Positions 1 to 27,702 are shown, counted from the first letter of the stretch. The stretch is 31,825 nucleotides of DNA from a virus (IMGVR_UViG_3300045988_159010); one strand, 5' to 3'. Made by a program: numbers and translations. The notes: generated by a model not told the origin, from the letters alone.

Positions 1-1
1 A

Positions 2-3000
2 TTAACTTATGTATATTCTAAAGGAACTAATGTATATGTAAAAGTACCAGGCGGTGATTTTACTCAAAAAAAAACTATTGAAGGCAAAGCATCTGCTACT
101 TCTTATACAGAAGAAGAATATAATGATTTATCTTAGCAAGTAGTCGAAATAAGTGAAATATATAGTAATGGTAATGAATATGGTATCTTAGCTTATGCAC
201 CAGAACCTAAAAAGGAAGAAGAAGAAACTCCAAAAGATGATAAAAATAATTCATCAAATGATACAGAAGAAGGTACTGCAACTGATACTTAGGCTGAAGA
301 TAGTAAAGAACCGATAGAAGAGGAAGAAGATAAAAGTAAATATTATGAATAGGTAATTTATGAAAATGATAATCTCACTGAAGATGTAATTTTTACTAGT
401 TTATTAACTACTTATCCTCGTATTATGATTTAGGCCGATTTTAGAACATAGTTTTATGGAACAATGATGGCTGGTAATTATGGATTAAAAATTGATTTTG
501 TAGAAAAAGATACAGGTATTGTTTTTAGTCGTAGATTAGATATTATAAATTTCTCTGGTAGTATTTACGATTATGAAGTATTTTCACCATAGTATGTAAT
601 TTATGATTTAACTGGAATTAATTTAATTGGCATAAAAAAAATTACATTTTTTCAAGAAAGATTTTTAAGATATGATACTGTTTTTAACGGCAAAGGTGAG
701 ATAACTGCGGTTTATGATAAAGAGCCTAATCTTTTTGTTAAAAATATAAAACTTAATTTTGTTGATGTCCAAGATTCTACTAAAGATTTATATTATGTAG
801 GTATTAGTGCGCCATAGGGTTTATCATTAATTCAAGATACCGATAAAATAAAATTAATAGGTGTTTTTTATTATGCTAATAAGAATATATTAGAAGAAAA
901 AACTTGCAAATGTTATTGGTATAAATAGAATCCGGCAGTTCTATCTGGTAGTGAAAAATATGATTAGATAGGCGGCCCTGGGTGGGAATGTATTAATGAT
1001 AGTTCTAATGTAAGATTTAATGAACTAATTATTTCGGGCAAAGATGTATATCAATAGATGCGATATAAATTAGTGGTAGTATATAATTCTAATGTTACTT
1101 TATATAAAGATATTAGAGTAGTTAAATATTATAATGAACGATTTACTATAATTCCGCAATTTATTAGTGAAAATGAAGTTAAATTATCTATTGTAGATTC
1201 ATTAGAAACTATTAACGAAGCTGATTGGTATGTTGATTTGATGGATGGATCATATTTACCTTTATCTACTGGAGTTAGTTAGATTGATATAAGTTAGTTT
1301 TTAGAATATGGTAATGTAATATTTTATACTGTTAGTAAATTAGATACTGGTGATTATGTACCTTGCGAATACAAATTAATTACTTATAAACAAGAATCGC
1401 CTGTGCGAGTAGTATTTAGTGGGACAGATACTTTTTAGTATGATGACAATGGTAGTATTTCTTTAGATTAGGCTAATAAAGAAATAATTATTACTCCAAC
1501 TATTAGCGTAGATAAAGAAAATATAGGAGTTAAAAGTGTTACTTGGTATTCACCCGATGGAGGAGAACTTTTAGAATACCCTACTACTAAAATTACTAAT
1601 TCAATGCTTTCAAAGCTTTGGATAGATAAAACTAATAATGCTTTACATTATTATATTAAACCTAAATATGTAGATACTTATACTAATAATACCTTATCAT
1701 TAAAAGTAATAACATTAGCTGATAAAGAATTTAAGTTTAATAAAAGTATTGTTTTTATTAAACCAGGTGACTCAACAGTTAGTGGTTTAGATTATCAATT
1801 AATTATTAAAGATTGCAATGCTGATGGCAGTGAACTTGACACTAAACCTATTAATAAAAAAAGTGGGTCTGATTATGAACCAATTTATCTCATGCCAGAA
1901 GTAAGATATAATGGTAATAAAATAATAAATGGTTCTGCTTATTAGGATGCCGTTGGTAATGCTACAGATAAATATAAAATAACTGTTGAAGCAGATCCCA
2001 TCAATTTAGATTGTAAAAAAGTAAATAAAGAAAAAAATGTATTTAAAATTTCAAATCCAGTTGAAGATTGTAAGGGTTAGTATTTTATAAAATTTAAAGT
2101 AACTATAGGGTTAGAAAATAAAGCTATTACAAATTAGACTTTATATTATTACAAGCCTATAATGGTTAGCACTGATTTTGTAGTTAATAGCATTGGTAAT
2201 ATTAATATACCTTCTAAAATTACTTATAATGAAAAGGGAACTCCTTCTTTAATAAATAAATAGATTTCTTTTATGTATAAATATGATGGTAAAAAATTTA
2301 TTGATTTATTATAGGTTACTAATCCAGTGTCTCTTACTGATTATATAATTATAGTTAATTCTACTAATTCTGATAATGTGAAATAGCAATATCTTAGACC
2401 GCAAGAAAATTATCCAGGTGCTTATTTTGCTAAATCTACTGACCAAGTAAAAACTGTCCCTATGGGTGCGTTATAGATTTTTTTACCAGATAATAAGGGC
2501 AGTTTATTTTATCCAATAGTAATGCTTAATAATAAAGATATTACTATTATAACAGATGAAGATAATAATGGTACTAATATACCTGTGCTTGATGAAGATA
2601 CTGTAGAATCTGAAAAACCTCTTGATCCAGGATTTTCTCATGGTAGACCTTGGGCACGAGATGAAGGCAAAACTTATGTAGGTTCTTTATGGGAAAACAA
2701 GCGTAGAAAATATACTTTACCTATTGAAGATCCGGGAAAAGATTTAGAAATTTAGACATTGAGTTTAGAAGCTGAAGAAGAACCACTAGAAGAATCAGAT
2801 AGTTCAGGATTTGTTTCAGGATTATATCAATATGATATAGATGGTATTCCTACTAATATTTTGCGTTCTGATGGAGTTGTAAAATTAGCAGGAGATGCTT
2901 TATGTTTTAATGTTGATGGTTCTATTTAGTTAAAAGAAGAAAGTGTAACTAATATTTTAACAGTAGCTAAATTATTAAATGAGATAGCTACAAATGCTGA

Positions 3001-3073
3001 TTTAAAACAATAGTTATCTGATTATATTGCTCCTAAAAATATAAAATTACGTGATTGGTATATCGAAGAATGA
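2..3073 (+). CDS. Large virion structural protein, 5' partial (>=1023 aa). Read in frame 2 through about 35 in-frame TAG codons; ends at TGA 3071-3073
   Basis: Frame 2 is open from the window start to TGA 3071, with no TAA/TGA in frame. The ORF-track pieces 1058-1282, 1604-1945 and 2522-2755 are all in frame 2 and each ends at TAG. The translation with TAG=Q is protein-like (beta-rich, Ig-like repeats, an LDPGF motif). A rho-independent terminator follows. Confidence 0.7.
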
Positions 3074-3102
3074 TGGATTTTTATCCATCATTCTTTTTTT
3101 TT
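3071..3102 (+). terminator. Rho-independent terminator after structural gene A
   Basis: Hairpin tgatgga-ttttta-tccatca followed by ttc plus a run of 9 T. Confidence 0.6.
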
Positions 3103-3122
3103 ATTTGGACCAAAATAGTATG

Positions 3123-3151
3123 TTTACAATATATAATTTTTAAAAATAAAT
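3123..3151 (+). promoter_or_regulatory. Putative sigma70/sigmaA-type promoter for structural gene B
   Basis: TTTACA (3123-3128), a 17-nt spacer, then ATAAAT (3146-3151). It lies about 30 nt upstream of the RBS AAAGGAGG (3166-3173) and ATG 3180. Confidence 0.3.
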
Positions 3152-3179
3152 AGAAATAAGAGTTAAAGGAGGTCAATAA

Positions 3180-6100
3180 ATGGCAGCGTCCACAATAAAT
3201 ATAAATAGAGTATATCCGCCTATTGTAGATAGTTCAATACCAGCATTTTTAGCAACTGCGGCCTCTATTAATATAAATTTTTCTTTACCTAAATCATTAA
3301 ATTATGAGGATGTAAAGAATATTTCAATTAAATTTGTATAGCAATCCAATAATAAAAGTATAATTAATACTGATAAATATTGGGATGGTATTATTTATAT
3401 GGAAAAGCCAACTACCTCTACTGATAATGGAATATATACAGTTACTGTAAATAGTTCAGATATTAAATTAGGAGATACAATAGGTTGGATTTCTAATACT
3501 TATTATAAGATTTAGATACGTTTTGGCTATGGAAAAATAGATTATACAGATAAAATTTCATTTTTTAAATGGAAAAAATCTTAGACTGTGGCTGAAGCTT
3601 TTTCAGAATGGTCTAATATTATAATTACTAAAGCAATTGATGATCCAATTGTTGAAATATTAAATAATAAAGATACTTCTTCATTAGATGTAGGATTTAT
3701 TTTAATATCAAGCAATAATGTAGAAGATAGCCGTTTTCCTAAATTTGAGGGAGGATATCAAAGCGATACTGAACCATTGGATAAATATCGTTTTAGATTA
3801 TATGAAGGTAGCTATGATTCAAAAAATCCTCCAAGTTCTGAACCATATTTATAGAGTGATTGGTTACAATATAATGGCGGAGGAAAAGATAAATATAGTG
3901 CTTTAGTCTCTTATAGTTTTAATAGACAATTAGATTAGACTGGAATAAAAATGTATTCATTGATTTTTGATGTTATTACAATGAATAATTATCAAAAATC
4001 TTCTGAATATTATAATTTTACTATTACTGAAAATTATTTAAAATAGTTATAGACTTTAGTATTTACAGTAAAAGATAATACTGAATCTACTGTATTATTA
4101 AATAAAATATCCGGAGCAAATCAAGTTGCTTTTTAGATGTATAAGGAATATTTTGGATTAAAAGGATAGGCTCCTAAATTTATTAAAGGTTATTATGATG
4201 ATGCAGATGGATATAATGCGGGAGATATAATTTATCAAACTGGTAATATTAATGAAGATAATATAGAAACTCATGTATTAAGTAAAATTACGAGAATAAA
4301 AGCAATTGAAGATTTTAGTCATAATTTACGAGCTGATGAAAATGGTAGTTTAGAGATCTATATTAAAAATAATCCTTATGAAGTAAAAGAAAAAATAACT
4401 ATTACTACTATCACTGGAGAAAAGGTAGAACGTGAAATAAATGTAGAAAAGTATCAATCACTTGATGGTACTTTTATTCTATCTAGAGCTTGTGAAACGG
4501 ATAATTATACTTAGTGGAAAGACATAGCTCAATTTGATTGGTATAATGAAACTAATTATGACGATAAATTGACTTTATTATATGAAGATTTTACAGTTGA
4601 AAGCGGAGTCAAATATAAATATGCTTTATAGAAATAGAATGCTGTAGGATTAAGAAGTGCTCCTAAATATGAATGTGATGATATTGATTCATCACCTGCC
4701 CATTGGTCTAATTTTTAGTATAGTTATATTTATAATAATGGTATTCAAGTTCGTTTAGATTTTGATTGTAAAACGAATAGTTATAAGCATACTACTTTAT
4801 TCCAAAAGCAAGATAGCTTAAATTCTAAATATCCAATTATTCTACGCAATGGATTAGCACATTATGCAGAATTTTAGTTAGGTGCTAAAATTTCTTTATT
4901 AAGTGATATTGATTCTTCTTTTTTAATGCGTAATGATGCTAAAGGTGGTTATTATCACAGTTGGTATGGGGATGTAGTTATTTCAAAAGATAAATATATT
5001 AAAACTTTTGAACGTGATTTATAGAATCCATATAATAATGATTATAGTATAAGACAATACAATATCCAAAATGCTTCTACATTTAATACTAATCCAACTA
5101 ATGATAATATATATATGGAACGTATATATAGGCATTGGGTAGAAGAATTTTTAAATGATGGTGGTTATAAATTATTTAAGTCGCCAACTGAAGGAAATCA
5201 TATAGTTACTTTAACTAATGTTACTTGGACTCCTCAAGCTTCTTTATATCGTATGATTTATGATTTTAATTCAACAGCTTATGAAGTGGCTGATTGCACC
5301 CCAGAAAATATTATTTTATATTAGATAAATCCATTAACTACTTTGTCTAATAATTCTAAATTAGCAATTTAGAATGCTAGTACAAAAACTAAAACAGTTA
5401 TTGGGCAAGTAGCTCGAACATTTAATGGAAAATATGCACAGGAAATTACTAATAATAAATTATCTATAATTGATAATAATAAATTTAATCTTACTTATGA
5501 TAATATTTGTAACGCAATAAAACTTCAAGAAGAGCAAGAAATAAGTGAAGATAGAAAATATCGAGTAAGAAGAATAAAAGCGATTTGGATAGAATAGTAT
5601 CCTAAACTAAATCTCAAAAATAAAATAGAATATTTAAAAAATAAAACTAGTTCAACTATGATAGGTCAGTTAACTAATGCAGTTGAATTATTAAGATGTG
5701 AATAGCTTTTATAGGAATATGAAAAAAATTAGAGTAATATTATTACTATGATAATAAATGGTAAAGAAATTTCTATGATGCCCAGTCGTATTTATCATTT
5801 GGATGATACTACTATTGATAGTATGTATTTAAAATTTACTCGTCCTGTTTTAATTAATTATATAGTTGATCTAGAGGAAGAAGATTTCTTAGAAATAGTG
5901 ACTGTTGCTAAACGTGAATTTGCACAATGGGGATAGCTTGGTGGAGTATTTACTGATACTCAAGATATTCTTGATAACCATTAGTTCTTTAGAAATGATG
6001 ATACTTATATAGTTAATGAAAAATACAATTATGGATTATATTCCACATTAAATTTAATGGATATAATAAAAGAAAAAGTACATACTTCTATTTTAAATAA

Positions 6101-6608
6101 TTATAGCGATCAAAAACTTGAATCTACTTTTGATTTATTATATAATAGTATAAATGAATTTTTAGATAAAGTTAAAGATGCTACAGAGTCCATCGAAGAA
6201 TTAGTAATAACTGGTACATAGTTATTAGAAAATTATAGACCTTTATCTGGATTAACTTTAAATAAATAGACTGACGCTTGGATGAATGGTTCAGATCAAT
6301 TAATTATATATAATTTTACTGGTATTGATAGTATCGAAATTGAAGCAGATGCTAATACAGATTTAGTTTTTTATAGAGAGTATGATCTTGATGCAACTAC
6401 TGGTAATTATCATCTTAGTTCTCCTGGCACTCATGTACGTATTGGACCTACTAATAAATTAGTTTTAAATCCTTTGAAAGATGAGATTGTTAAAGTAGAA
6501 TTTGTTAGACCTACTTATGCAATAATTAATTATAAATCTGTTTCGTCTTTAGAAGTTAAAAAAGGTAAGCAGAAAGAAAAAGATGAATCATAGGAGAAAA
6601 CGGAATGA
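3180..6608 (+). CDS. Large virion structural protein (about 1142 aa; tail or baseplate-like), about 30 in-frame TAG
   Basis: RBS AAAGGAGG plus ATG 3180 in frame 0. The ORF-track pieces 3588, 5115, 5748 and 6282 are all in frame 0 and each ends at TAG. Reading through by hand lands exactly on each next piece. Terminates at TGA 6606-6608, overlapping the next ATG (ATGA). Confidence 0.7.
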
Positions 6609-9600
6609 GAGAATATCTAAAAGATAGTGAGTTTTTAACTGCATTAGATGAAATGCGTATAAAAAAACATTATATCAAACTTACCATTTTATCTTTTGTT
6701 GATGAAAAACCTATACGAGAGGTATAGGGTATAGCAACGGCAGGCTCTATTACAGTTAATGGGTCTGCCGCCTTGCGCCGCACGATTAGTCTAACAATTA
6801 GCGGTATAGAAAATGAGAATGACATTAATAATATTGAAAATATTATTTCAATTAATAAAAAAGTAAAAGTAGAGGTAGGGCTTGAAAATCCATTTGCAGA
6901 TTATAAAAACTATGGAGATATTATTTGGTTTCCTCTTGGAACATTTGTAATTAATCAAGCTACTTCTTCTACTACAGCTTCTTCAGCAAATATTTCTATC
7001 TCAGGTAAAGATAAAATGTGTATGCTTGATGGTACTTGCGGAGGTACATTACCTTCAGCAGTTACCTTTCATGAAACACAATATGAAGATGAAAATGGAG
7101 ATATTACAATTGAGCAAGTGCCTATATTTACGATTATTAAAGAATGTGTAACACATTTTGGTAAAGAACCAGAATAGAATGTTATAATTAATGACGTAGA
7201 TATGACAGCTAAACTTAGTACAAAATATATGGGCCAAAATCCTATATGGTTTTCTAAAGATTATAAAAGTTTTGTAATTAGTGAAAACGCTCCTGAAGAT
7301 GAAAATTTTTTATAGCACAAATTTATTTATGGACAAGACGTAGGATATCAAGAAACAGATTTTACTTATCCAGGAGAATTAGTATTTTCTGCGGGAGACA
7401 CAGTAACTTCTGTCCTTGATAAAATTATTGAATCTTTAGGAAATTATGAATATTTTTATGATTTAGATGGTCATTTTGTATTTTAGTAGAAAAAGAATTA
7501 TTTAAACTATTATTATACTCCTATTACAGAAATAAATGATACTTATTATATAAAAGCTTTTTCAGATAGTAAATATTATTATACTTTTGCAAATGCTAAA
7601 GATGCATTATCTTATTATAATAGTCCTAAATATGAAAATATAAAAAATGATTTTATTGTATGGGGCGATAAAACTAATAGTAATGGAGTTACTAAAACTA
7701 TATAGTATCATTTAGCCATAGATGAAAAACCTCAAATTGATTTAGCTAATCAATATATGTGGGATGTAGTTCGAGGTAATGGTGACCATGCTTTTTATTT
7801 ATTTGAGTATAAAAAAAGTAATTATAATTAGACACCTGATAAAAAAGCTTTAGAAATTATTTATTCTGTTAATCATGAAGAAATGGTGGATGAAGTAATT
7901 GAATCTAACATTAAAGAAGATATAATTGAAAATATTTTAAAGAATTATTCTTTTTACACTGGTGATTAGTTTATTTTATATTATAAAATAATATTTTTAA
8001 ATTAGATAAGATATTATAAAATTACTTTATTAGATGGAGAAATTATAGGATTTCAATATCTTGAAGATTTAACTGATATTATTGACTTTACTCATTTAGC
8101 TCTTGGTGTTTATCCTAAAAAAGATGCTACTGATAGTTGGCCAAGTAATAATAATTCTTCTAATAAAAATAATAATAATAAAAATGATAGCTATAAAGAT
8201 GATAATACATTAGATCCGGGTTTTGGTATTCCTACCTCTTGGTGGCGTAAAGGCCAAGGAACTGGAGATTCAGAAAATTATGGTATTATGCTAATATCTA
8301 ATACAAAAGAGTTAGATCCAGATTTTATGGTACCAAATCCAGGTTCCACAGTATTAGATCCTGATTTTATGTTACCAGCAGACCAAGAAAATAATGCAAA
8401 TAAAAATAATAATTCTTCTAATGATAAGTCTGATAATAATAATAATAATACAACGATTAATGAATCTAAAGAATATTATTTAACTATAATAAAAAATATA
8501 GATAATAAAAATATTTTGGGTTATTATGATAGTGAAGGTTAGTGGATTTAGATTTATGAATTAACTGAAGAACTTTCATTAAAAAATATAGAAAATTTTT
8601 TAAATACCATTAAAATTAATTATTATATTAAAATTATTAAAGATATAAATTTTGATAAAGAAAATAAAGATTATGATTTTAATTTTATTGATTCTAATAA
8701 TTTAATTTCCATCAATAATACTATTGTTGCTAGTTATAAATTAATTAGTTACAATGAATCTAAAAAGAAGACAGAATATAGTTATATATTTCCTAATAAT
8801 TATTCAGTAATAAAAAATAAAAATGATGAAACTGTTATTACTGAAGAAGAACATAATGATTTAGTTAAAAAATTATTAGAATATTATAAAACAAATAAAG
8901 ATGATTTAACTTCAGATATTGAACTAATTTATAGTTATAAAGATATGGAAGAAATTCCTAAAGATGATCCATCTGAGTCAAATAAACCTGGCAATTCAGA
9001 AGATAATAAGATACCTGGCCCTACTCCTAGAGATCCAAATTATGGAATTATGCCTTTAGATATTTTAGATCCAGGTTTTACATTAAAACCCAATGAAGAG
9101 AATAATAATAAAGATAATACATCAAATGGAAATACATCGGGAGGAAGTAATTTATTGTTACCATTCTTAGATCCAGTAGATGGTAAAAAAGATTAGTTAA
9201 AAATCTTAGGTGATTAGGAAGATATAATAAAAAAAATTTTTATTTTACGTGATGATGGTAATTATTCATTAAATGAAATTATTGAAGAAATTACTAAAGC
9301 TTATAATTCTAATATTCTTGATTTTTCTACTATTAATGATAATAATAAAATTAAAATTATTACATATACTCCTGAAGAACCTCCTTTTGATTATGAAGAT
9401 AATTTTTATTTTACTTTAATTGGTACTCCTTGTAATGAATGGCGTGAAGAATTATTTAGACAAGCTTTATTAAATAATGAAAATGGCACTCAGAAAGGAG
9501 ACTATGATGATGAATTATTAGCTAAAATAGATGGTGAATACTTGTGGCGTAAACAAATATTTAATCCTTAGAATGAAACTTGGCATGAAGAATGGCGGAA

Positions 9601-10204
9601 TCAAATTGATTAGATTGAATCAAAAAATTCTTCTGAAGAAAATCAAAATGAAGAAATCATACCTGATACTTGGATTGGATGGAATCCTGCTATTTATCTT
9701 GATCCTAGCTTAATAACATATTGGTTAGATTTTATTGATGTAGATTAGTTAGTATCTAGATATTCAGTTAATAAAATAGGCCGGCGTACTAAAGCATTGA
9801 CTAAAACTAATATGAGTCTTTTATATAAATTAGAAGTGCCTGATATCATATTTTTTGAAAATACTGGGGAAGCAGATTTAATTCAAAAGATAGAAGATTA
9901 TACATTAAAAGGTTAGGCTTATTGTGCTTTAAAACCGGGGCAAATGAAATTATTTAGTTCTAGCGGAACAGGAAGTACGGCATTTGATTATATAAGAGAA
10001 ATGTTATATTAGTATTTAATTTATAATTTAACTGTTACTATTAACTGTGCGCCAAGATATTATTTAGAACCTAATAATTTAATCTATATAAATGATAGAA
10101 AAAGTAATATACAAGGGGAATTTGTTATAACTCAATATACTCTTCCTTTAACTTATAATGGAAATATGTCGATTACAACAAATGAAGCTTTAACAAGAGT
10201 ATAA
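6605..10204 (+). CDS. Large virion structural protein (about 1199 aa; may be more than one protein), with N/D/S-rich low-complexity linkers carrying LDP(G/D)F motifs
   Basis: ATG 6605 overlaps the preceding TGA. Frame 2 is continuous through the ORF-track pieces 6773, 8288 and 8945 (all frame 2, each ending at TAG) to TAA 10202-10204. The frame-0 ORF 9531-9713 is out of frame and is rejected. Confidence 0.55.
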
Positions 10205-10215
10205 GGAGGTAAATA

Positions 10216-10917
10216 ATGGGAATTCAATTTAAACAAATTGTTTATAATTTAGAGGACTATGGTGGTTCTGGTGGATTAGTTTCTACTAAATAGGGAGATT
10301 TATCTGAATTAGTATATAGTGCTGTATATTAGAATAATTTAAATGATTCTACTGAAACTACTACAAATGATGAAACAGATTATGAAAATAAAAAAATAGA
10401 TATTTTTGGGGCTAATATTTTAAAAGGCTTCAATAATGTAAAAAAAATAGGCATTTAGGCACCCCCTGGTACTAAATTCACTTTTAATAAAGCAACTACG
10501 CAAGATACTGGGGAATGGATTATGGTTGGACGTACTGGTATTTATGAACTTAATGATGATATTGTAATTAATTATTTAAGATTTCAACGTCCTTAGAATT
10601 ATATTATAAATAAAGAATTGAGTCAATAGTTATAGGCTACTGGGACTGGAATAATGAAAGTAGCAAGAGATACATTTTTATAGAAAATTAATGATTTAGA
10701 AAAAACATTAGGTTCAGCTCCTGACCGCACTGAAGCTGGTTCAGAATATTGGACTGAATATAATAATGCTCATCAAAATTATATAACTTAGTATAAAAGC
10801 GGTTTAGGAATTTATTTAAAAGGTAAAGCAGGAGTATATGTACCTGATCCAACTATTGTAGATTTATATAATATAATTATAGACTTTACTTATGAAACAT
10901 ATGAAGGGGGAGAGTAA
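10216..10917 (+). CDS. Virion structural protein (233 aa), about 9 in-frame TAG
   Basis: RBS AAGGAGG (10203-10209) and ATG 10216 in frame 1. No ATG-to-stop ORF of 60 aa or more was called here because TAGs occur every 20-40 codons. Ends at TAA 10915-10917. Confidence 0.55.
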
Positions 10918-10920
10918 TAA

Positions 10921-13818
10921 ATGTATAGCTTTTATGGTGGACAAAAAGGGCAAGACTTTAAAATAACACGAATATTTGCCAATCGTGCTATTGATATGGT
11001 TGGAGATTTAAAAGCAAGATGGACTTCTCCTGTGAATGTTGGAGATTATGTTTTTATTAATTATGGTGATCCATCTTATATGAATGAAGAAACCTCCAAC
11101 TATAATACTAATCTTCAGATAGATTTAAAAGATAGCGGAAAATCATATACTAATTCATTGTGGTAGAAAATCTATGTAGATAGAAATTTAACAGTTTCTC
11201 CAGATTTTCCTTAGAATGATAATAATATTTATATTTTCTTAAATTTAGAAGAAGATAATAAAGAAGAATATGGAGAATCTCTTCATGAAGTATCTGATTT
11301 AGAAAATGAAGAATGTTTTGGTTTTGGATATCGTTTAATTGCTTGCGTAACTGGCGTTACTCCTCGTATTCAAGTATTTCATTAGACTATAGATATTGAA
11401 GATGGAGATCCTTATGTTACTTTAGATTTAACCAATCCTGATACTCCTAAAATTAAATTTTATTTACAACGTGGATAGCGTATTGAAGAAGTATATAAAA
11501 ATATAGTTGGCTCTTAGGAAGATCCAAATGTTTATTTTAAAACTGAAGGAACTTATTTTGATAAAAATGGAAATATTAAGACAGCAACATTAACTAGGCC
11601 TCAATTAACTTTTGATTTGCCTAAAGCTCCAACATTTTTTTCTGGTTCTTTATTTGGATTAGGACCATTATCTTATTTTCATAATATGGGTAATTATAAA
11701 ATTTATGGATATCAAAATTATGATTATAAATATACAATTCGGAAAAATTAGGTTTCTATACTATCACGAATTTCGTATTATTTATTACATATCCTAAAAG
11801 AAGATAAAGTAATATATGATGAAAATGGGAATATTATTGATAATAAACATTTTTTCAATAATAATTTAAATGCAATATATGCTTAGCCTGATGAAAGAGT
11901 TTTATTTAATCCTCAAAATAATTTAAAAATAACTAAATTATCTTAGCAATTATATACTTATTTAGTTGATAATTTTAAATTATAGCAAATTAAAAATAAG
12001 TTAGAATATGAATGGTACTGGATAGATTCAGAATATAATCTAAGTAGCCAATAGAATTTATTTTATTTATTTAATGATATGTATCCTAGATCTTTGGTTT
12101 AGGTTGATCAAATAATATATTCTTTATTTAATATTTTATTAAAGTTAATAAATAATAATAAAAAAGATGACATTAGTTCTGTATATTATTTTGAAAATAG
12201 TAGTATAGCTAATTATTGTTTATCAATATTAGCTGAATATGCTACATTAGGAGATCATTTTTATGATATAACTAATAATGGCTATAAAGCTGATTTCTAT
12301 ATAAATGAGCCAACTGGGAAAATTTATAGCTTATATGAGATAACTTCTTCTTAGATTACTGGCATTTATTTAGGGGCTATTACAGCACCGGCTCCATTAG
12401 CTAAAACAGAATTAGTTGATTCTTTTATTAAAGATAAAGATAATAGTTATATTAAAAATTAGATTGTAGTTGAAAGTAGTATTTTAGAAGAAGATAATAT
12501 TGGTACTTATTAGGAAATTTTTAATTTTTCCATTCCTAAATATCCTGATATATCAATAAAAACTATAAATGTTAAAAATGAATAGACTTATAAAGTATCT
12601 AATATAAAACCTATAAGTAAAAATATGGAACAAATCGATTTAGAAACTCCTTTGCCTATTCATATCCTTACTCCTAAAAATTCTGGATTAACTGTTTCTA
12701 TAGATACAATTAATAATAATATTGAAAAAGTAATAGGTAATAAAGAGAGTTATATTGGTCCTATTCTTTCTAAAAATGATTTATTTATTAATATTACAGA
12801 TAATTTAAGTGATTCTACACGTGGACATATTTTTTAGTATAAAAAAGATCCAGTCCAATCATTAGAAGATTAGGAGTTTTTATTTGATAATTGGGAAAAA
12901 ATTGGTACTTTAACTGGTTTGCCTGGAATCCCATTAGCTAAAAAAATTATTAATATAACTGCTGTAGAACATTTATCAAATAATATTGTTTATGAAGGTT
13001 CTGAGGGCAATGGTAATAATGATTATATTTTTAATTACAATATTTTAAAAACATATTATGTAGATCATGTTAATGATGGATTAGAATTTATTATCAAACA
13101 AATATTAAATGGAACTAAATTAAATCAAGAAGCAATAAAAAATGCAGGTAGTAGCACTCCATAGTTAATAATTAATTTTGGAGATAATGCTGGGGCTAAT
13201 TTGCCTGATTTAACAATTAATTCTGACAGTGGAGAAGTAATTCTTATTAATTTTTATAATCCTACATTAACTAGCAGTTATTGGGGACTTTATATTCAAA
13301 ATAATTGGGATTTAATATCTGTTTCAGGTAACAGCCAGGATTCTATTATTTCAATACAATAGAATCCTTAGCAAGAAATTAGTAAAAAAACTGCTTATTC
13401 TAGTTGGTATTTAGATACTCAATATTTAAACAATAATTTAGTTTGGAATAAATGGATTGGAATTACTACAAAAAATCTTGTAGATACTTCAATATCTATT
13501 GATGGAATCTCAAAAACAAATATTCCAAAATTTACAGCTAAAGAAGGAGATAAAATAACAATTCATACACTTAGTAGAAATAAATCTACAACGGAAATAG
13601 GAGAAATAACTAGTAAAATTTTTTATAATAATACGTTGATGAAAGAATCTGCTAAATGTTAGGTTGCTCCGTCAGAAGGATTATGGGGATATGCTGAAGT
13701 AACTTATGAATTTAACTTAAAGAATGATATATCTATTGAAGTCATAAGTGAAAAATATCCAGATTCTTCTCCTTATGTTTTTGGGCAAAATGTTTATATT
13801 ACAGATTATTTAGATTAA
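10921..13818 (+). CDS. Large virion protein (about 965 aa), likely tail fiber or receptor-binding protein; last big structural gene before the holin. About 30 in-frame TAG
   Basis: ATG 10921 in frame 1. The ORF-track pieces 10921, 12625 and 12919 are all in frame 1. The frame is continuous to TAA 13816-13818, followed by RBS AAGGAGG. Confidence 0.6.
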
Positions 13819-13831
13819 GGAGGAATTTTAA

Positions 13832-14239
13832 ATGGATGCTCAATTAGTTGCGCAAATATTTCAAATTTGTATTATTCCTTTACTTGGAATTTTAACGACA
13901 TTCTTAGTTACTTGGATTAAATCTAAAAAGGACGCTTTAAAGCAACAAACAGATAGTGAATTAGCTAAAAAATATTTAGACATGCTTGATAATACAATTA
14001 CTGATTGTGTTATTGCAATGAATTAGACTTATGTTAATTCATTAAAATAGCAAGGAAAATTTGATGGTGAAGCTTAGAAAAAAGCATTTACTGATGTTTA
14101 TAATAAAGTAATTGCTATTTTAGGTCAAGATGCTATTGAATATTTGAATTCTGCTGTTGGAGATCTCAATGAATATATTTCTTCTAAAATTGAGAAAGAA
14201 GTTAATTCAAATAAAATTACTCCAACAGAAACAAAATAA
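13832..14239 (+). CDS. Holin (LL-H / phage_holin_6-like; single N-terminal TM, then charged tail), 135 aa with 3 in-frame TAG
   Basis: RBS AAGGAGG plus ATG 13832. N-terminal TM segment FQICIIPLLGILTTFLVTWI. After TAG=Q the central region reads QTYVNSLKQQGKFDGEAQKKAF, which resembles the conserved core of LL-H family holins. Lies directly after the tail genes and is followed by a strong terminator. Confidence 0.6.
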
Positions 14240-14243
14240 TAAA

Positions 14244-14279
14244 ATGGGAGAACCAATGCGGTTCTCCCATTTTTTTTTA
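14244..14279 (+). terminator. Rho-independent terminator after the holin
   Basis: Perfect 9-bp stem gggagaacc / ggttctccc, loop aatgc, then a run of 10 T. Confidence 0.8.
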
Positions 14280-14401
14280 TGCTTATTTATTATATTAAAA
14301 TGCCCTAAATTTTTTCCCAAAAATTTTGACAAAATTGGGAAATTATTTGACAATAATTTTTATATACCTATGGAAAGAATAAATAAGAAAGGATTTTAGT
14401 T

Positions 14402-14833
14402 ATGAATTTATATCAAGGTTTTGGAAATAATCAAAGTTATTATCAACCACAAAGAGCAAATACAATAATACCTTCAAGTTAGTAGCAATAGCCAGCTTTT
14501 ATTGGGTTAAAAGGTCGGCCAGTTTCTTCATTAGAGGAGGCAAGAGCTGCTGCTATTGATTTTGATGGTTCTGTATTTTTCTTTCCTGATTTGGCTAATA
14601 AAAGGATTTATACTAAGCAAATTAATTTAGATGGAACAGCATCTATGAATATGTATGAGTATAAAGAAGTTCCTACTGAAGCTTTTAATTCATCTAATTT
14701 TGTTACTCGTTAGGAATTTGATGAAACATTAAATGATATTAAAGGTGCATTAAATATGATAGCTTAGTAGACTTAGCAGCAAAAACAATAGCCAAAAGTA
14801 GAAGAACAGTCTAAACCACAGATTAATTTTTAA
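14402..14833 (+). CDS. Hypothetical Q-rich protein (143 aa), 10 in-frame TAG
   Basis: Two TTGACA hexamers lie upstream (14326-14331 and 14347-14352), then RBS AAAGGA and ATG 14402. Frame 2 runs to TAA 14831-14833. With TAG=Q it reads SSQQQQPAF and IAQQTQQQKQQPKVEEQ, where TAG codons are interleaved with CAA/CAG. Confidence 0.55.
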
Positions 14834-14846
14834 GGAGTAATGAATT

Positions 14847-15083
14847 ATGCAGATGAATCCTATGTAGATTATTCAAATGATAAGAAGTGGGTCTAATCCT
14901 CAATAGCTAATGATGTCATTTTTATAGCAATAGAATAATCCAATGGCGAATAATTTGTTATAGATGGCATAGAATGGAAATATTAGTGGAATAGAGCAAA
15001 TAGCACGTAACATGTGTGCATAGAAAGGATTAGACTTTGATAAAGAATTTAGTTCCTTTAAGCAATAGCTTGGAATTAAATAA
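14847..15083 (+). CDS. Small hypothetical protein (78 aa) with 11 TAG codons (14%)
   Basis: RBS AAGGAG (14832-14837) plus ATG 14847 in frame 0, running to TAA 15081-15083. The translation MQMNPMQIIQMIRSGSNPQQLMMSFLQQQNNPMANNLLQMAQNGNISGIEQIARNMCAQKGLDFDKEFSSFKQQLGIK is natural only if TAG is a sense codon. Confidence 0.55.
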
Positions 15084-15109
15084 TATATTTATTAAAGGAG
15101 GACATTTTT

Positions 15110-15961
15110 ATGTTCAACACAAGTAATGGTTATAGTTTAGCTGATATTGCCGCGGCCACAGGCGGTAATGGATACCGTAATGGTGATGATGGTATGTGGG
15201 GTAATGGTGCATGGTGGATAATTATTCTTTTCCTTTTCTGCTTCAATGGCTGGGGCGGAAATGGCTGGGGTAATGGCGCCAATGGTTCTGGATATCAGGG
15301 AACTACAACAAGAGAAGAATTAACTTATGGCTTTGATGTAAGCGACATTAAGTCTGGCATTAATTCTTTACAGACAGGTTTATGTAATGGTTTTGCTGGC
15401 GTTAATAATAATTTATTAACTGGCTTTGCAGGCGTTACTGAAACTTTAAATGGAAATGCTCGTACCTTGCAATCTGATATTAGTAATTTAGGCATGAATG
15501 CTATGTAGAATACTTTTGGTATTACTCAAGCTATTAATGCTGATACTATTGCTAATATGTAGAACACAAACGCTCTTTCTCAGCAATTAAATAATATGGC
15601 AGCAACAAATGCTCATTGCTGCTGCGAGAATAAGAATCTTATTACATCAAGCTTCGCTGATTTAAATTATAATTTAGCAAGTCAAGCTTGTCAAAACCGT
15701 CAAGTAGTTAATGAAGGAGTAAGAGATATTATTGACAATACTAATGCTAGTATGCGTTCTATCCTTGATTTCCTTGTTCAAGATAAGATTGAAACTCTTA
15801 CTGCTGAAAATGCTACTCTTAAAGGTCAAATTTCTCAAAACTTACAGAATGCTTATTTAATAGACCAATTAAGCAGCAAAGCTCCTATCCCAGCTTATGT
15901 TGTTCAAAATCCTTATGCAGGAACTAATTATACTGGATGTGGATGCTAGTATACTGCTTAA
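15110..15961 (+). CDS. Gly/Trp-rich membrane protein (283 aa): GNGWG repeats, one TM (WWIIILFLFCF), Cys-rich C-terminus. 3 in-frame TAG
   Basis: RBS AAAGGAGG plus ATG 15110. ORF-track pieces 15110 and 15596 are both in frame 2 and are joined through TAGs. Ends at TAA 15959-15961. Confidence 0.55.
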
Positions 15962-15981
15962 TAAAGAAAAGAGGTTAAAAA

Positions 15982-16401
15982 ATGGAAATAACAGCTAATG
16001 CTTTACAAACGGTAAATGCCAATGGTAATGTAGTGTTTACTAATACCGCTGTTCCAGGTAGTTGCGCCATGGTTCATCGTGAAGGTAGCGGATTAGTAAC
16101 TTTACGAGGCATAACTAATCAATGTAGAGCCAGATTTAAGGTTACTTTTGGAGCTAATGTAGCTCTTCCAACTGGTGCAACTGTAGCTCCTATTTCTTTG
16201 GCAATAGCTATTAATGGGGAGCCTGTTGCAGAAACTACAATGATTTCAACTCCAACTGCAGTAGAATAGTTTAATAGTATTTCTCGTGCTTTATTTTTAA
16301 ATGTTCCACGTGGATGTTGCCAATAGATAAGTGTTGAGAATACCAGTGCTTCTGCCGTCAGTGTTGAAAATGCCAGTCTTATTATAGAAAGGGTGGCTTG
16401 A
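15982..16401 (+). CDS. BclA C-terminal-domain-like (C1q/TNF-fold) protein, 139 aa, 2 in-frame TAG
   Basis: RBS AAGAGG plus ATG 15982. The C-terminus ...SVENASLIIERVA closely parallels the Bacillus BclA / collagen-like exosporium protein C-terminus ...SIIIEKVA. The IAINGEPV segment matches the BclA beta-sandwich region IQVNGVPV. Ends at TGA 16399-16401. Confidence 0.55.
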
Positions 16402-16403
16402 CT

Positions 16404-16955
16404 ATGATGGAAAAATTATGTTAGATTAAAAATAGTTTAATAACTTTAGTTGAATAGCAAATGGCTAATCCTCAACAAGCAGATACCCATGAAATGGGAG
16501 AAGTTATTGATATGATTAAAGATTTGGCCGAAACTTGTTATTATGGATCAATCGTAGATGCTATGATAGGGAGTAAGGAAGAAGAAATTTATGGCATCGG
16601 TATGATGAAAGACCCTCGTAAACGTAAAAATCCATATCCTTATTATGTAAATAATGATTATTATGAAGATAAACATTATGGTAAGGATTATGATGGCGGA
16701 TATAACGGCTATAGTTATACAGGCACAGGCGGAATGAATGATGATAGTAAAAAAATGGGCCATAGCCCAATGAAGCGTAAATCTTACATTGAAAGTAAGG
16801 AACATCATATGGACTAGGCCCAATAGATGAGAGAGCTAGAAGATTATGCCCAAGTTCTAACTTCTGATCTTTTAGAAATGATTCAGGATGCTACTCCTGA
16901 AGAAAAACAATTATTACAAAGAAAGATAGCCACATTAGCTACAAAAATTGTATAA
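16404..16955 (+). CDS. Tyr/Gly/Asp-rich protein (183 aa), spore-coat-like composition. 6 in-frame TAG
   Basis: ATG 16404 lies 2 nt after the preceding TGA, in frame 0, and runs to TAA 16953-16955. It contains the ORF-track piece 16461-16817. Composition example: NPYPYYVNNDYYEDKHYGKDYDGGYNGYSYTGTGG. Confidence 0.5.
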
Positions 16956-16960
16956 GAATA

Positions 16961-17000
16961 AAAATAAGGGGAAGTAATTACTTCCCTTTATTTTTTTTAT
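16961..17000. terminator. Bidirectional rho-independent terminator at the convergence of the + and - modules
   Basis: Palindrome gggaagtaattacttccc with an A-run on the 5' side and a T-run on the 3' side. It therefore works as a terminator on both strands. Confidence 0.8.
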
Positions 17001-17002: not shown

Positions 17003-17434
17003 TTATACATCATGGACAGGTAATTGGATTGCCCGTTCATAATAAGTCTTTGCTTGACCATTTCCGCCCAAGCTAGTATAAACTTTATAAAATTCTACTA
17101 ATTGTTCGTACTCACCATTTGTCATAAATCCTTGCTGGATATATGCTTTACATAATTGAGTCAATCTAAAACGATAAGAAGCTAAAATTACATCCATATG
17201 ATTATTTGCAATTTTATTGCTTTCTAGTACATACTTTCGTAATTCTTCAATTTCTTGACGAATTGGCTCAATATGAGTTTCAATTGTATTATCTAAAGTA
17301 CTATTCTCTTTTTCTTCAGTTAGTTTTTTATAAGTTTTCATTTTGCTATGAAGATGTTTGCAGAAAGCTAGGGCGCCCGCAGAAATTAATCCAAAAATAA
17401 TTTCAAGCAGATGTGTTGTGATAAATTCTAACAT
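17003..17434 (-). CDS. Hypothetical membrane protein (143 aa, N-terminal TM helix)
   Basis: Complete ORF with no internal TAG. RBS GGGAGGA. TACAAT and TTGGGA-like promoter elements lie upstream. TM segment LLEIIFGLISAGALAF. Confidence 0.5.
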   Translation of the reverse strand: MLEFITTHLLEIIFGLISAGALAFCKHLHSKMKTYKKLTEEKENSTLDNTIETHIEPIRQEIEELRKYVLESNKIANNHMDVILASYRFRLTQLCKAYIQQGFMTNGEYEQLVEFYKVYTSLGGNGQAKTYYERAIQLPVHDV

Positions 17435-17520
17435 TTATATAATCCTCCCGACATGAATTTGTCGCTCTTTCTCATATTATAAATGAAAGAAAGAATTATA
17501 TAATTGTATAAAATTGCCCG

Positions 17521-18027
17521 TCATTCCCAATTTAATTCATCCTACTACGCTTTAAAATATGCAGTATATAAACATATAGCATCACAAACATCATCATTTG
17601 CTTCAATACCATATGTATCTTTTACATATTTTATGTCAAGAGGTTTAAGATTTTCACGTTTAATACCGCGGCCTGTTTTAATTCCTAAATTTTTTCGCCA
17701 TTCACTAGCTTGCATAAATTCTATGCTTTTGGAATTTATATTATCATTTACACTATGAGCACCAAGGACTATAGAGCCTTGAAGCCACATAAGTAAACGA
17801 GCTGTATCTGAGTAGCCATAAGCTTCTGGATGAACATCTTCAGCTATTAATTTTTCTATATTATACTATTTTACTAATTCAATAATTCCACTTTGTATCT
17901 TTTGGATACGGCTTACATTATTAGAAGAAGATGCAGTAATTAATCCATAAGTAATTAATTTACCTTTGTCATCTGATATAGCGTATCCAGTAGATTTTGT
18001 GGATAAGTCTAAAAATAAAAAATTCAT
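17521..18027 (-). CDS. ruvC: RuvC-like Holliday junction resolvase (168 aa), 3 in-frame TAG
   Basis: RBS GGAGGAG plus ATG 18027. The N-terminus MNFLFLDLSTKSTGYAI matches the RuvC catalytic-Asp motif, and the C-terminus has DDVCDAICL. The ORF track stops at TAG 17545, but two consecutive TAGs are read through to TGA 17521-17523. Confidence 0.65.
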
Positions 18028-18069
18028 ATAAATCTCCTCCTATTATAGAAGGAGATTATTATTTATTGA

Positions 18070-18618
18070 TTAATTATTAACGTCCTTACTGGTTGAACCA
18101 AATCCGCCAATTCTTGTACCTTTAGCTTTATCATCATCTGTAATAAGATAATTACGAATAATCCCTTGACCAATAATATCGCCCTTGGCAATTTCAATAT
18201 CAAAAGGTGAGAGATTAATTAATTGAAAATAAATATGACCCTCATTATCAGGATTGTTATAATAATCAGCATCAATGATGCCAACACTATTAGCCATAAT
18301 AATCCAATGCTTTAAGGGTAAAGAAGAACGAACAGATAGTTCAAGGAATTGTCCATCTTCCATATGGCACTTCATTCCAGTAGGGATAAGAGTAGGTTTT
18401 AAATTAAGTCCCTTAGTAATTTTAGCCATATCATTCAAAGAAATAATATCGTTAGTAGCTGCCCCATTTTTAAAAACTTCTACAATATGGGTATATGAAG
18501 GAATTACAACATCTTCAGCAGATGCAAAATCATAACCAGCACTATATTTAGTCTTACGTTCTGGCATTGGTAAATCCCAATTATTATATTTACTTACCTT
18601 TTCAAAATAAATACTCAT
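18070..18618 (-). CDS. dut: dUTPase
   Basis: Motifs SAGYD, GIIDADY and RIGGFGSTS. No TAG. Ends at TAA. Confidence 0.85.
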   Translation of the reverse strand: MSIYFEKVSKYNNWDLPMPERKTKYSAGYDFASAEDVVIPSYTHIVEVFKNGAATNDIISLNDMAKITKGLNLKPTLIPTGMKCHMEDGQFLELSVRSSLPLKHWIIMANSVGIIDADYYNNPDNEGHIYFQLINLSPFDIEIAKGDIIGQGIIRNYLITDDDKAKGTRIGGFGSTSKDVNN

Positions 18619-18893
18619 TAGTTAATTATAGTCTCCCCGTCAAAATTAGTTCTGGTTGTATAACAAAGTGAAATATGATCTGTCGGTTCTTTTTCATCAT
18701 TAAATTTTTTTACAAGGGTTACTTGATACCATTCATCAATAATCTCGCCCTTCTATTTACGTTCTTTCTTTGTAGAAGAATATTTAGCTAAATCATATTC
18801 TCTATCCTACTTAGCATTATTAATAAGCTCAGCTGCTTCTTTTTCTGTGTCTACTCTATATACTTCAGTAGTATTAATTAAATATTCAAACAT
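18618..18893 (-). CDS. Hypothetical protein (91 aa), 2 in-frame TAG
   Basis: RBS GGAGAA plus ATG 18893. Its TAA overlaps the dut ATG (TAATG). Confidence 0.45.
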
Positions 18894-18904
18894 ATTTTCT
18901 CCTA

Positions 18905-19165
18905 TTAATTTACATAAACTTTAATATTATTATTACTATACTTAGTAATTAAAGAATTTTCAATAGTTTCTTTAAGACCTTCGCCATAAGTTTGATTACC
19001 ATAAAGATGAATATCACTATCTTTATATTGTTCTGATAGCTTAGTTAAAGTATCACTAAGATTATCAAGACGGCAAGTGCAAACCATAATAGGCTTTTTA
19101 TCATTTGGACCTTGGTAATAAATAATTTGTGTTGTATTAAATAAATCAAAATAAGTAAATAACAT
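18905..19165 (-). CDS. Hypothetical protein (86 aa)
   Basis: Complete ORF. RBS GGAGA. Ends at TAA. Confidence 0.45.
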   Translation of the reverse strand: MLFTYFDLFNTTQIIYYQGPNDKKPIMVCTCRLDNLSDTLTKLSEQYKDSDIHLYGNQTYGEGLKETIENSLITKYSNNNIKVYVN

Positions 19166-19167
19166 AA

Positions 19168-19683
19168 TTATCTCCCTATCACTGGAACAATGCCAGCATC
19201 ATAATCAAATAAATGATAGCAATGAGTTTCATCGTTATTTGTAATCCAAATTTCAACTGCCCCAGAGCCACTATCATTAATGTCTTTAATCTGTCCTAAA
19301 TCTTTAATAATATCATAAACGGCGGAAGTCATATTAAGATAAGGATTATCATTGCTCAAGCTATTAGTTTCAAATACTGTATAATAATTTAGTTCATTAC
19401 ACAAAAGCATAAAATACTTATCAGAACTTTCTTGAACATAGGTATCAATAACTTCTAATTTTTTATCTATTTCTTCTGGAGTTAGTTCTTTCATTTGGCC
19501 AATTACACATTTATTTAATTCATAATTGCTCATTTTAAAATCGACGCCATCTGCTAATACACCCCATTCAGTGCCGGACCAGACATAATTATGGGTATCA
19601 GTAGTATTATAGAATACATCTCCTGCTTTTGGTTCTTTCTATATTGCTTCTTCTAAATTGGCAATCTTTCCTCTGTATCTCAT
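19168..19683 (-). CDS. Hypothetical protein (171 aa), 1 in-frame TAG
   Basis: RBS GGAG plus ATG 19683, which overlaps the nrdG TAA (TAATG). The frame continues through a TAG into the ORF-track piece 19168-19533. Confidence 0.5.
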
Positions 19684-20168
19684 TAATTCATCTCCTTTAA
19701 GTTTATAATATTTTGATTTTTACTACCTCTCATTGATAATGTAATATCTCTTTGAGACTGAATATATGGACCATCAATTAATACATCAGCTTTTTTAAGA
19801 ATTTCTTGAAGCTTACCATTAGTAGTTTGCTTAATTAAATCGTCATAATAATATCCAGTCCAAACATAAATTTTAGTATCAGGAAGCTTTTCTTTAATTG
19901 TATTAATAAGAAGTAGAGTGAGTAATTGATTTTGTTCACATAATGGTTCACCACCCATTATACAAAAATTTCTATGAATGCCATTAGCTTGAAGGGCTTG
20001 AAATATTTCTCCAAAAGTCTCATTAGTAAATTCTTTACCTTTTTCGAAATCCCAAGTTTCAGGATTATGACATCCAAAGCAATGATGTGGGCAACCTTGG
20101 GTGAAAAAGGAGACACATACTCCCGGAGCTGCGGCTATATCATTTTTTATAATTCCTGCGTATTTCAT
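19683..20168 (-). CDS. nrdG: Anaerobic ribonucleotide reductase activating protein (radical SAM)
   Basis: CxxxCxxC cluster GCPHHCFGC. The real start MKYAGI at 20168 follows RBS GGAGG and overlaps the upstream TGA (ATGA). No TAG. Confidence 0.8.
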   Translation of the reverse strand: MKYAGIIKNDIAAAPGVCVSFFTQGCPHHCFGCHNPETWDFEKGKEFTNETFGEIFQALQANGIHRNFCIMGGEPLCEQNQLLTLLLINTIKEKLPDTKIYVWTGYYYDDLIKQTTNGKLQEILKKADVLIDGPYIQSQRDITLSMRGSKNQNIINLKEMN

Positions 20169-22773: not shown

Positions 22774-22784
22774 TTTAACCTCCG

Positions 22785-22828
22785 CACTAAATATAGTATA
22801 AATTTTTGAACTTATACTATATTTAGTG
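22785..22828 (-). promoter_or_regulatory. Tandem NrdR-box-like palindromes (17-bp perfect inverted repeat, 10-bp spacer) immediately upstream of the nrdD RBS
   Basis: CACTAAATATAGTATAA, a 10-nt spacer, then TTATACTATATTTAGTG. Each arm is close to the NrdR box consensus acaCwAtATaTwGtgt. The centres are about 29 bp apart and overlap the likely -10 region. Confidence 0.45.
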
Positions 22829-22864
22829 TTTATTATTAATTCATTATCTACTTTGGGTTAAGAT

Positions 22865-27664: not shown

Positions 27665-27702
27665 TTCCCTACCTCCTTAATTTATTATTATTTTCTATAA
27701 AT

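Follow-up and report, generated by a model that had tools for sequence, protein, structure and literature searches.

Unequal use of the TAG codon between the two convergent gene arms of a code 15 human gut phage

Layout of the locus

The distribution of the codon TAG was analyzed among the genes of a 31,825-nucleotide stretch of viral DNA, IMGVR_UViG_3300045988_159010 (the window, meaning the whole stretch that was analyzed), in which TAG appears to serve as an ordinary glutamine codon in virion genes and to be kept out of a subset of replication and nucleotide-metabolism genes. With 100% identity, the window matches a segment of a 189,494-bp scaffold (ENA ERZ5855809 scaffold_9) obtained from a Peruvian gut metagenome, a non-westernised human gut sample, and dozens of sister contigs of 185-191 kb were found across ENA, Logan and IMG/VR; a megablast search of GenBank phages with 25 kb of the window gave no match. 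The GC content of the lineage is low, at ~27%. Two convergent gene arms meet in the window; the gut phage of which it is part is of virulent type, has a genome of ~189 kb and genetic code 15, and probably infects a Clostridia-like host.

Under code 15 the window holds 28 genes, 11 on the plus strand and 17 on the minus strand. PHROG and Pfam comparisons assigned large tail or virion proteins, a holin-annotated gene and five small genes to the plus-strand arm (2-16955; the virion or late arm), listed below with TAG counts and the TAG share, defined as TAG/(TAG+CAA+CAG).

2-3073, plus strand: tail/virion gene, its 5' end cut by the window edge; 24 TAG in 1,023 codons (2.35%), share 0.63
3180-6608, plus strand: large virion gene (phrog_30026); 26 TAG in 1,142 codons (2.28%), share 0.51
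6605-10204, plus strand: tail gene (phrog_32343; phrog_1887, tail protein); 18 TAG in 1,199 codons (1.50%), share 0.47
10216-10917, plus strand: virion-module gene; 8 TAG in 233 codons (3.43%), share 0.57
10921-13818, plus strand: large virion gene, tail-fibre-like; 21 TAG in 965 codons (2.18%), share 0.49
13832-14239, plus strand: holin-annotated gene with one N-terminal transmembrane segment (phrog_13712, E = 4e-29); 3 TAG, share 0.30
14241-14273: strong hairpin terminator, 14-15 bp stem, closing the tail/holin operon
14402-14833, plus strand: glutamine-rich gene (phrog_21718); 8 TAG in 143 codons, share 0.42
14847-15083, plus strand: 78-codon gene rich in Gln, Asn and Met; 8 TAG (10.3%), share 0.57
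15110-15961, 15982-16401 and 16398-16955, plus strand: three genes (phrog_16490, phrog_20016); 3, 2 and 4 TAG, shares 0.17-0.40
16960-16995: bidirectional terminator at the convergence point of both arms

The minus-strand arm (17003-31824; the replication or early arm) encodes a RuvC-like resolvase, dUTPase, NrdG, NrdD, guanylate kinase, DnaE, a Dda-like helicase, a lysozyme-like protein and RecJ, and the replication module of the phage is SPbeta-like (YorF, YorH, DnaB/YorI, DnaE/YorL).

From 17003, minus strand: gene for a 143-amino-acid (aa) protein; 0 TAG
17521-18027, minus strand: RuvC-like resolvase; 3 TAG
18070-18618, minus strand: dUTPase (dut); 0 TAG
18618-18893, minus strand: small gene; 2 TAG
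18905-19165, minus strand: small gene; 0 TAG
19168-19683, minus strand: small gene; 1 TAG
19683-20192, minus strand: NrdG; 0 TAG
20165-20512, minus strand: small gene; 2 TAG
20509-22773, minus strand: NrdD anaerobic ribonucleotide reductase (phrog_487, E = 2e-196); 7 TAG in 754 codons, share 0.21
22865-23434, minus strand: guanylate kinase (gmk); 0 TAG
23684-27664, minus strand: DnaE-type DNA polymerase, SPbeta YorL-like, 1,326 codons; 1 TAG versus 57 CAA/CAG
27703-27731, minus strand: candidate sigma-70-like promoter upstream of dnaE, TTGATT-17-TATAAT with an extended -10 TG, a consensus match only
From 27925, minus strand: 199-aa gene; 1 TAG
28528-29646, minus strand: Dda-like helicase (phrog_325); 4 TAG in 372 codons
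To 30177, minus strand: 156-aa gene; 1 TAG
30101-30829, minus strand: lysozyme-like protein (PF18013) with a signal-peptide-like N-terminus; 0 TAG versus 14 CAA/CAG
30847-31824, minus strand: RecJ-like exonuclease, C-terminal 325 codons; 9 TAG (2.8%), share 0.69

An open reading frame (ORF) at 14157-14405 was rejected as a gene, having no family match and overlapping the terminator hairpin at 14241-14273.

TAG is read as glutamine

ORFs of at least 100 aa sum to 4,012 aa under the standard code and to 10,310 aa when TAG is read as sense, the longest then reaching 1,326 codons, and reading through TGA brought no gain in the coding total. All 28 genes end in TAA or TGA, and under the standard code the plus strand falls into short ORFs from position 1 to ~15,000. 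Codon comparison with orthologues in more than 200 loci indicates which amino acid is inserted: in relatives of 60-90% identity, the TAG sites of the window align with glutamine (172), TAG (107), lysine (39) and glutamate (26), and this substitution profile equals that of the CAA and CAG sites of the window. On this comparative evidence TAG encodes glutamine in the phage.

Close to the end of the RuvC-like gene, two TAG codons stand in tandem (TAG-TAG), and a conserved "...NWE" motif of the C-terminus comes after them. That motif lies downstream of the pair, so both are sense codons, and the possibility that the C-terminal TAGs of this gene are ancestral stops was discarded for the same reason. 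Without suppression the virion arm is untranslatable. Standard-code annotation of such contigs breaks up most virion genes, and even NrdD and RecJ.

Across all 28 genes, the base that follows the codon differs between TAG and CAA, G being rarer (0.19 versus 0.33) and C more frequent (0.16 versus 0.06) after TAG (chi-square p = 2e-4), which may reflect a context effect on read-through.

TAG use differs between the arms

TAG made up 125 of 5,525 codons in the virion arm (2.26%) versus 36 of 4,784 in the replication arm (0.75%), a difference significant by Fisher's test (p = 2.4e-10), by permutation of gene labels (p = 0.0018) and by a Mann-Whitney test (p = 0.0025), and still present when dnaE was left out (p = 8e-6). 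The TAG share followed the same pattern, with 0.477 in the virion arm and 0.180 in the replication arm (p = 1.5e-11). The bias of TAG toward late genes that the initial annotation of this locus had claimed is thus borne out, the permutation result in particular showing that TAG frequency is not uniform across the arms, and per-gene counts agree with its statement that gmk, dut and nrdG lack TAG and that the 1,326-codon dnaE has one. Its densities were overstated: the five big structural genes, put at 3-4%, include four at 1.50-2.35% and only the 233-codon gene at 3.43%, and the 78-codon gene at 14847-15083, put at 14%, has 10.3%. This last value is high because the encoded protein is 18% glutamine; its share of 0.57 is ordinary for the arm.

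Both arms are also strongly heterogeneous internally (chi-square p = 9e-5 and 5e-8), and at least one TAG occurs in 11/11 plus-strand and 11/17 minus-strand genes. The earlier claim that core enzymes do not depend on suppression therefore stands for no more than a subset of them. RecJ, previously considered intermediate, carries TAG at 9 of its 325 codons in the window (2.8%), and its share of 0.69 is as high as that of any tail gene; the full gene of 580 aa has 14 TAG. A 96-codon ORF on the minus strand (23431-23721), which overlaps dnaE at its end and gmk at its start, has TAG at 5 of 7 glutamine-type codons and is kept equally TAG-rich in nine close relatives (46/63), lying between the TAG-poor dnaE and the TAG-free gmk.

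The same division extends beyond the window. In a close relative with extended arms, 65 early-arm genes had a TAG density of 0.70% and a share of 0.19, versus 2.52% and 0.50 in seven late genes. The late arm continues upstream, adjoining the gene at 2-3073, with a 3,107-aa tape measure gene that carries 108 TAG in the closest relative (share 0.48). In the closest IMG/VR relatives and the parent scaffold, the early arm extends ~55 kb further as a mosaic. Among the long TAG-free genes of this extension (TAG versus CAA+CAG) are those for a GyrB-like (0/18) and a GyrA-like (0/22) protein and proteins of 402 aa (0/15), 459 aa (0/24) and 829 aa (0/28), and among its genes with TAG are DnaB (3-4), homing-endonuclease-like ORFs (6-10), radical-SAM genes (5-6) and tail-fibre-like genes (13).

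Avoidance in early genes rather than preference in late genes

A bias of this kind could arise from base composition, and leucine codons offer a control, because the base differences among TTG, CTA and CTG are precisely those among TAG, CAA and CAG. The ratio TTG/(TTG+CTA+CTG) did not differ between the late (0.63) and early (0.65) arms (p = 1.0), and composition or mutational bias therefore does not explain the difference in TAG. The TAG share expected under neutrality ranges from 0.35 (position-specific nucleotide model) to 0.63 (leucine analogue). The late-arm share of 0.48 falls inside this range, indicating that TAG is a neutral synonym in late genes and that the departure from expectation is the depletion in the early arm.

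Comparison with relatives points in the same direction. TAG accounts for 9/835, 1/442 and 1/815 of the dnaE glutamine codons in relatives of three identity bands (1/442 being the 60-90% band), even though exchange between CAA and CAG in this gene is saturated (211/405 aligned glutamine pairs at <60% identity); time has thus not been limiting, and the depletion of TAG is attributable to selection. In late genes, exchanges between CAA/CAG and TAG were found in 107/266 pairs at 60-90% identity. At the late-arm share, the chance of finding no TAG among the 56 glutamine codons of DnaE would be ~1e-16. Other TAG-poor genes behave alike, with TAG at 0/105 glutamine codons of gmk in close relatives, 0/174 and 0/113 of the lysozyme-like gene, 1/37 of dut and 2/100 of nrdG, set against 166/244 in the TAG-rich RecJ. 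The lysozyme-like gene is embedded between RecJ and the helicase and is strictly TAG-free in the 22 relatives of >60% identity; a secreted lysin, a superinfection function and a virion enzyme are candidate roles for its product. The avoidance persists across about 50 relatives, and from these codon comparisons we conclude that a subset of replication and nucleotide-metabolism genes is held TAG-free by purifying selection. Recent horizontal acquisition was rejected as a source of the TAG-free genes, which are syntenic and TAG-free clade-wide.

An alternative would be neutral drift governed by evolutionary rate, in which TAG piles up in fast-evolving virion proteins through K/E/Y-to-Q and CAG-to-TAG changes with no selection on timing. 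TAG positions in the tail genes do frequently correspond to K or E in relatives, the most conserved enzymes are among the TAG-poor genes, and distant relatives use less TAG overall. TAG share was, however, uncorrelated with protein divergence among early-arm genes (rho = 0.04). At similar levels of divergence the genes also part ways: the nearest divergent homologues (<90% identity) of the tail genes at 3180-6608 and 6605-10204 show 73-75% identity, and these two genes have TAG shares of 0.47-0.51, whereas dnaE orthologues at 64-90% identity carry the single TAG among 442 glutamine codons and the lysozyme-like gene is TAG-free even at 63-65% identity in some relatives. Along with the saturated CAA/CAG exchange of dnaE and the equal leucine ratio of the two arms, this makes drift a very improbable explanation.

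The one TAG in dnaE (25604-25606, minus strand) corresponds to CAG or CAA, an invariant glutamine, in 45/45 other relatives, including those 96-99% identical, and is confined to this scaffold and a single sample of 100% identity. Its occurrence in a single lineage indicates a recent C-to-T change (CAG to TAG) at an invariant glutamine. It was rejected as the mark of a split gene, as it aligns with that glutamine inside a continuous alignment.

A suppressor tRNA on the replication-arm strand

No tRNA was detected by ARAGORN in the window and ~45 loci near dnaE, and an Rfam scan of 117 kb including the window found no family. In relatives, a tRNA cluster lies ~40 kb beyond the window end on the replication-arm strand, with genes for Thr, Pro, Gln(UUG), Tyr, a CUA anticodon, Leu(UAA) and Gly. 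The CUA tRNA, which matches the Rfam tRNA model at 49 bits, occurs exactly once in each of the 12 lineage loci that span the cluster (12/12), with one sequence type dominant. In both types of this tRNA(CTA) the 1-72 pair is mismatched, position 73 is G and the CCA end is encoded. The mismatch and G73 resemble identity features of tRNA-Gln, and charging with glutamine would be consistent with these features; the phage-encoded tRNA(CUA) would then read TAG as glutamine.

The suppressor is placed and oriented with early or middle genes, which fits early expression. The sequence TTGATT-17-TATAAT lies 127 nt upstream of it, and TTGAAA-17-TATAAT likewise precedes members of the cluster, both as consensus matches only, and TTGATT/TATAAT hexamers also occur upstream of dnaE in the window, where promoter-like sites showed no enrichment over shuffles. 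One option raised in the initial annotation, that the suppressor is expressed very early, gains support from the location of tRNA(CTA) on the early-arm strand and from the near-consensus sigma-70-type promoter upstream of it.

Inside the tRNA cluster, two structured RNAs flank the suppressor, one on each side, in locus L295 (IMGVR_UViG_3300029858_000001): a full-length ROOL RNA (RF03087, 320 bits) at 6746-7333 and a RAGATH-33 RNA (RF03102, 138 bits) at 8565-8677, with a near-consensus sigma-70-like promoter ahead of each region. Near-identical genomes (L295-L315) carry one or the other of two unrelated tRNA-Gln(UUG) sequences, and an unrelated type of tRNA-Sup(CUA) was found in one genome (L296); this pattern of sequences indicates that tRNA genes turn over in a cassette-like manner.

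Early expression of the suppressor, as suggested by the sigma-70-like promoter, would also suit a scenario without timing, in which suppression is imperfect but always on and TAG is purged where truncated products are most harmful. The TAG-free set is indeed dominated by large catalytic enzymes (DnaE, the topoisomerase subunits, the 829-aa and 459-aa proteins). The longest genes nevertheless tolerate 18-108 TAG (the 3,107-aa tape measure and tail proteins of 1,000-1,200 aa), implying very efficient suppression by the time they are made; NrdD, DnaB and RecJ, equally long or essential, tolerate 4-14 TAG, and the short genes gmk, dut and nrdG are TAG-free as well. Continuous imperfect suppression accordingly seems a most unlikely cause of the pattern.

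Lysis genes

The holin-annotated gene carries 3 TAG, as the initial annotation had stated, at codons 65, 73 and 82 (14024-14026, 14048-14050 and 14075-14077), all after the transmembrane segment, and would yield without suppression a 64-aa fragment that retains this segment. The label "holin" comes from its PHROG annotation only, a Pfam search with the gene giving no significant match. A lysis pair of Gram-positive type lies ~20 kb beyond the window on the replication-arm strand, consisting of a CHAP+Amidase_2 endolysin (PF05257, PF01510; phrog_20388) with 1-2 TAG (share 0.12-0.25) and an adjoining 152-aa protein with two transmembrane segments and 4-5 TAG among 7 glutamine codons (share 0.57-0.71).

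These genes bear on the proposal that the holin acts as a TAG-dependent lysis timer, in which TAGs in lysis genes would be selected targets that block lysis until suppression is established. The position of the three TAGs after the transmembrane segment, the TAG-rich protein beside the endolysin, and the report that lysis genes show the strongest TAG or TGA bias of all families in crAss-like and Agate phages (Borges et al., 10.1101/2021.08.26.457843) would all agree with it. However, lysis genes in this lineage are not preferentially TAG-biased: the share of the holin-annotated gene, 0.30 in the window, 0.17 in close and 0.03 in distant relatives, is below that of every tail gene, that of the endolysin is low and that of the secreted lysozyme-like gene is zero, leaving the 152-aa protein as the only one with a high share. 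Raw TAG density should be taken with caution as evidence of a timer, because density is confounded by glutamine content. Moreover, if protein yield follows read-through efficiency to the power of the TAG count, the 3-TAG holin-annotated gene and the endolysin would become translatable well before the tail genes (18-26 TAG) or the tape measure (108), and the sequence thus gives no pointer to a holin-specific timer. The lysis-timer reading is weak, and we consider it unlikely; the general recoding model that the initial annotation had invoked fits the locus, and its emphasis on lysis timing does not.

A probable graded dependence on the code switch

We consider the most probable interpretation, at roughly two chances in three (about 0.65), to be a graded, count-dependent reliance on a code switch, with a TAG-free early subset and neutral TAG in the virion arm. 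In the virion arm, TAG behaves as a neutral glutamine codon near mutational equilibrium, taking about half of the glutamine codons. Purifying selection keeps DnaE, guanylate kinase, dUTPase, NrdG and the secreted lysozyme-like protein TAG-free, and likewise the two topoisomerase subunits and a number of large accessory genes that lie outside the window, most likely as these proteins are needed right after infection, when suppression is absent or weak and the standard code of the host prevails. Genes with few TAG (NrdD, helicase, DnaB, RuvC, RecJ) would become translatable as the suppressor tRNA builds up, and those with 18-108 TAG (tails, tape measure) would need near-complete suppression, because yield would fall roughly as efficiency to the power of TAG number. 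The outcome would be a graded dependence on the code switch and not a switch aimed at the holin.

Several observations weigh against this interpretation. The terms "early" and "late" denote gene function and strand only; the early arm is a mosaic, with at least one TAG in 40/65 genes, and RecJ and the 96-codon ORF are as TAG-rich as tail genes despite belonging to it. The single TAG in DnaE means that replication is not fully independent of suppression here. The suppressor tRNA was found in relatives whose replication arm is 93-97% identical to that of the window, and the promoter scan, a consensus match, was only modestly enriched over shuffles (33 versus 22 +/- 4.3). If the sigma-70-like promoter before the suppressor is active, transcription might start with infection, which would shorten any interval without suppression.

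A stronger form of the same idea would make TAG number per gene a graded translational clock, genes being tuned to none, a few, or tens to a hundred TAG and becoming translatable in order as the suppressor tRNA outcompetes release factor 1. This is possible but doubtful. Were it true, the strictly TAG-free set would be the true pre-suppression proteome, unexpectedly including a secreted lysozyme-like protein and large accessory proteins, and the new TAG in DnaE would be a code change caught in the act of spreading into the last standard-code genes. The subset of genes under selection against TAG also provides a list of candidate pre-suppression proteins.

Host and modular exchange

Lysis genes indicate a Gram-positive host, and the sequence affiliations make a gut Clostridia-like bacterium the probable one. 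Metagenome-assembled genome bins that hold contigs of the phage are labeled "uncultured Mollicutes", "uncultured Clostridia" and "Clostridium sp." (including CAMELE010000010.1; MDD7151422.1), labels that conflict, and the amidase domain of the endolysin shares ~82% identity with prophage lysins of Clostridiales and Flavonifractor.

In three genomes (L051-L053), the tail genes (2-13818) are only 52-75% identical to those of the window at the aa level, beside a replication arm 88-93% identical at the nucleotide level and a DnaE protein 93-98% identical; this combination points to the exchange of host-recognition genes as modules. In many sister genomes dnaE and nrdD, both intact in the window, are split by homing-endonuclease ORFs (NUMOD3, GIY-YIG, HNH) that are TAG-rich, for example with 6 TAG versus 5 CAA/CAG or 10 versus 17, a feature that Borges et al. 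also described in Agate phages. The genes at 15110-16955 form an island of 35-39% GC versus ~26% elsewhere, 3' of the strong terminator at 14241-14273; they are conserved, and one has a transmembrane segment and Cys-rich motifs.

Comparison with known recoded phages

Borges et al. (bioRxiv 10.1101/2021.08.26.457843; Nat Microbiol 2022) described recoding of structural and lysis genes, variable recoding among replication genes and suppressor tRNAs encoded by phages, and hypothesized that a mid-infection code switch gates late genes. The main pattern reported here is already published; new are the evidence that selection acts through avoidance of TAG in a particular set of genes, the place of the suppressor in the genome and the recent origin of the TAG in dnaE. 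The present lineage shares with the code 15 phages of that study TAG as glutamine, its own suppressor tRNA(CTA), heavily recoded structural genes, variable replication genes, recoded structural and lysis modules scattered over the genome, low GC content, a non-westernised human gut habitat and a size of ~190 kb. It differs in that lysis genes are not the most TAG-biased and that the late-arm share equals the neutral expectation. Borges et al. also reported, from a similar human-gut dataset, a TAG-recoded member of the "Sapphire" clade (~201 kb), and the phage plausibly belongs to this clade, given the agreement in size, code, habitat and scattered recoded modules.

The closest GenBank relative by DnaE (43% aa identity) is phAss-1 (OQ749652; Babkin et al. 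2023, PMC10607447), described with relatives as a "Caudoviricetes code 15 clade". It has the same two-arm layout and the same pattern as the window lineage, with TAG shares of 0.29 versus 0.09 between its arms (p = 3e-21), and its Sup-CTA tRNAs are likewise on the replication-arm strand. TAG is absent from the phAss-1 genes for DnaE, NrdD, the helicase and the topoisomerase subunits, occurs 4 times in RecJ and 110 times in the tape measure, and is abundant in the tail genes. The two differ in NrdD, with 7 TAG in the window and none in phAss-1, and in overall build: phAss-1 has 136 kb, 44.5% GC and 36 tRNAs, including three suppressors, two of them directly upstream of nrdD, whereas the window lineage has ~189 kb, ~27% GC and about 7 tRNAs, with one suppressor far upstream.

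For crAss-like phages, read-through of TAG as glutamine has been confirmed by proteomics (Peters et al. 2022, PMC9523058). TAG-recoded members of that group (Yutin et al.; PMC9523058) have in common with the present phage code 15 and a late block dependent on a suppressor tRNA. They are nevertheless an unrelated lineage, podovirus-like, with Bacteroidota hosts, genomes of ~100 kb and another replication module, whereas the phage described here has an SPbeta-like replication module and lysis genes of the type found with Gram-positive hosts. The lineage therefore adds a well-sampled example to the stop-codon-recoded gut phages (>50 near-complete genomes of ~189 kb, Gram-positive-type), in which the codon control and the clade comparison sharpen the picture from selection for TAG in virion or lysis genes to selection against TAG in a subset of early genes.

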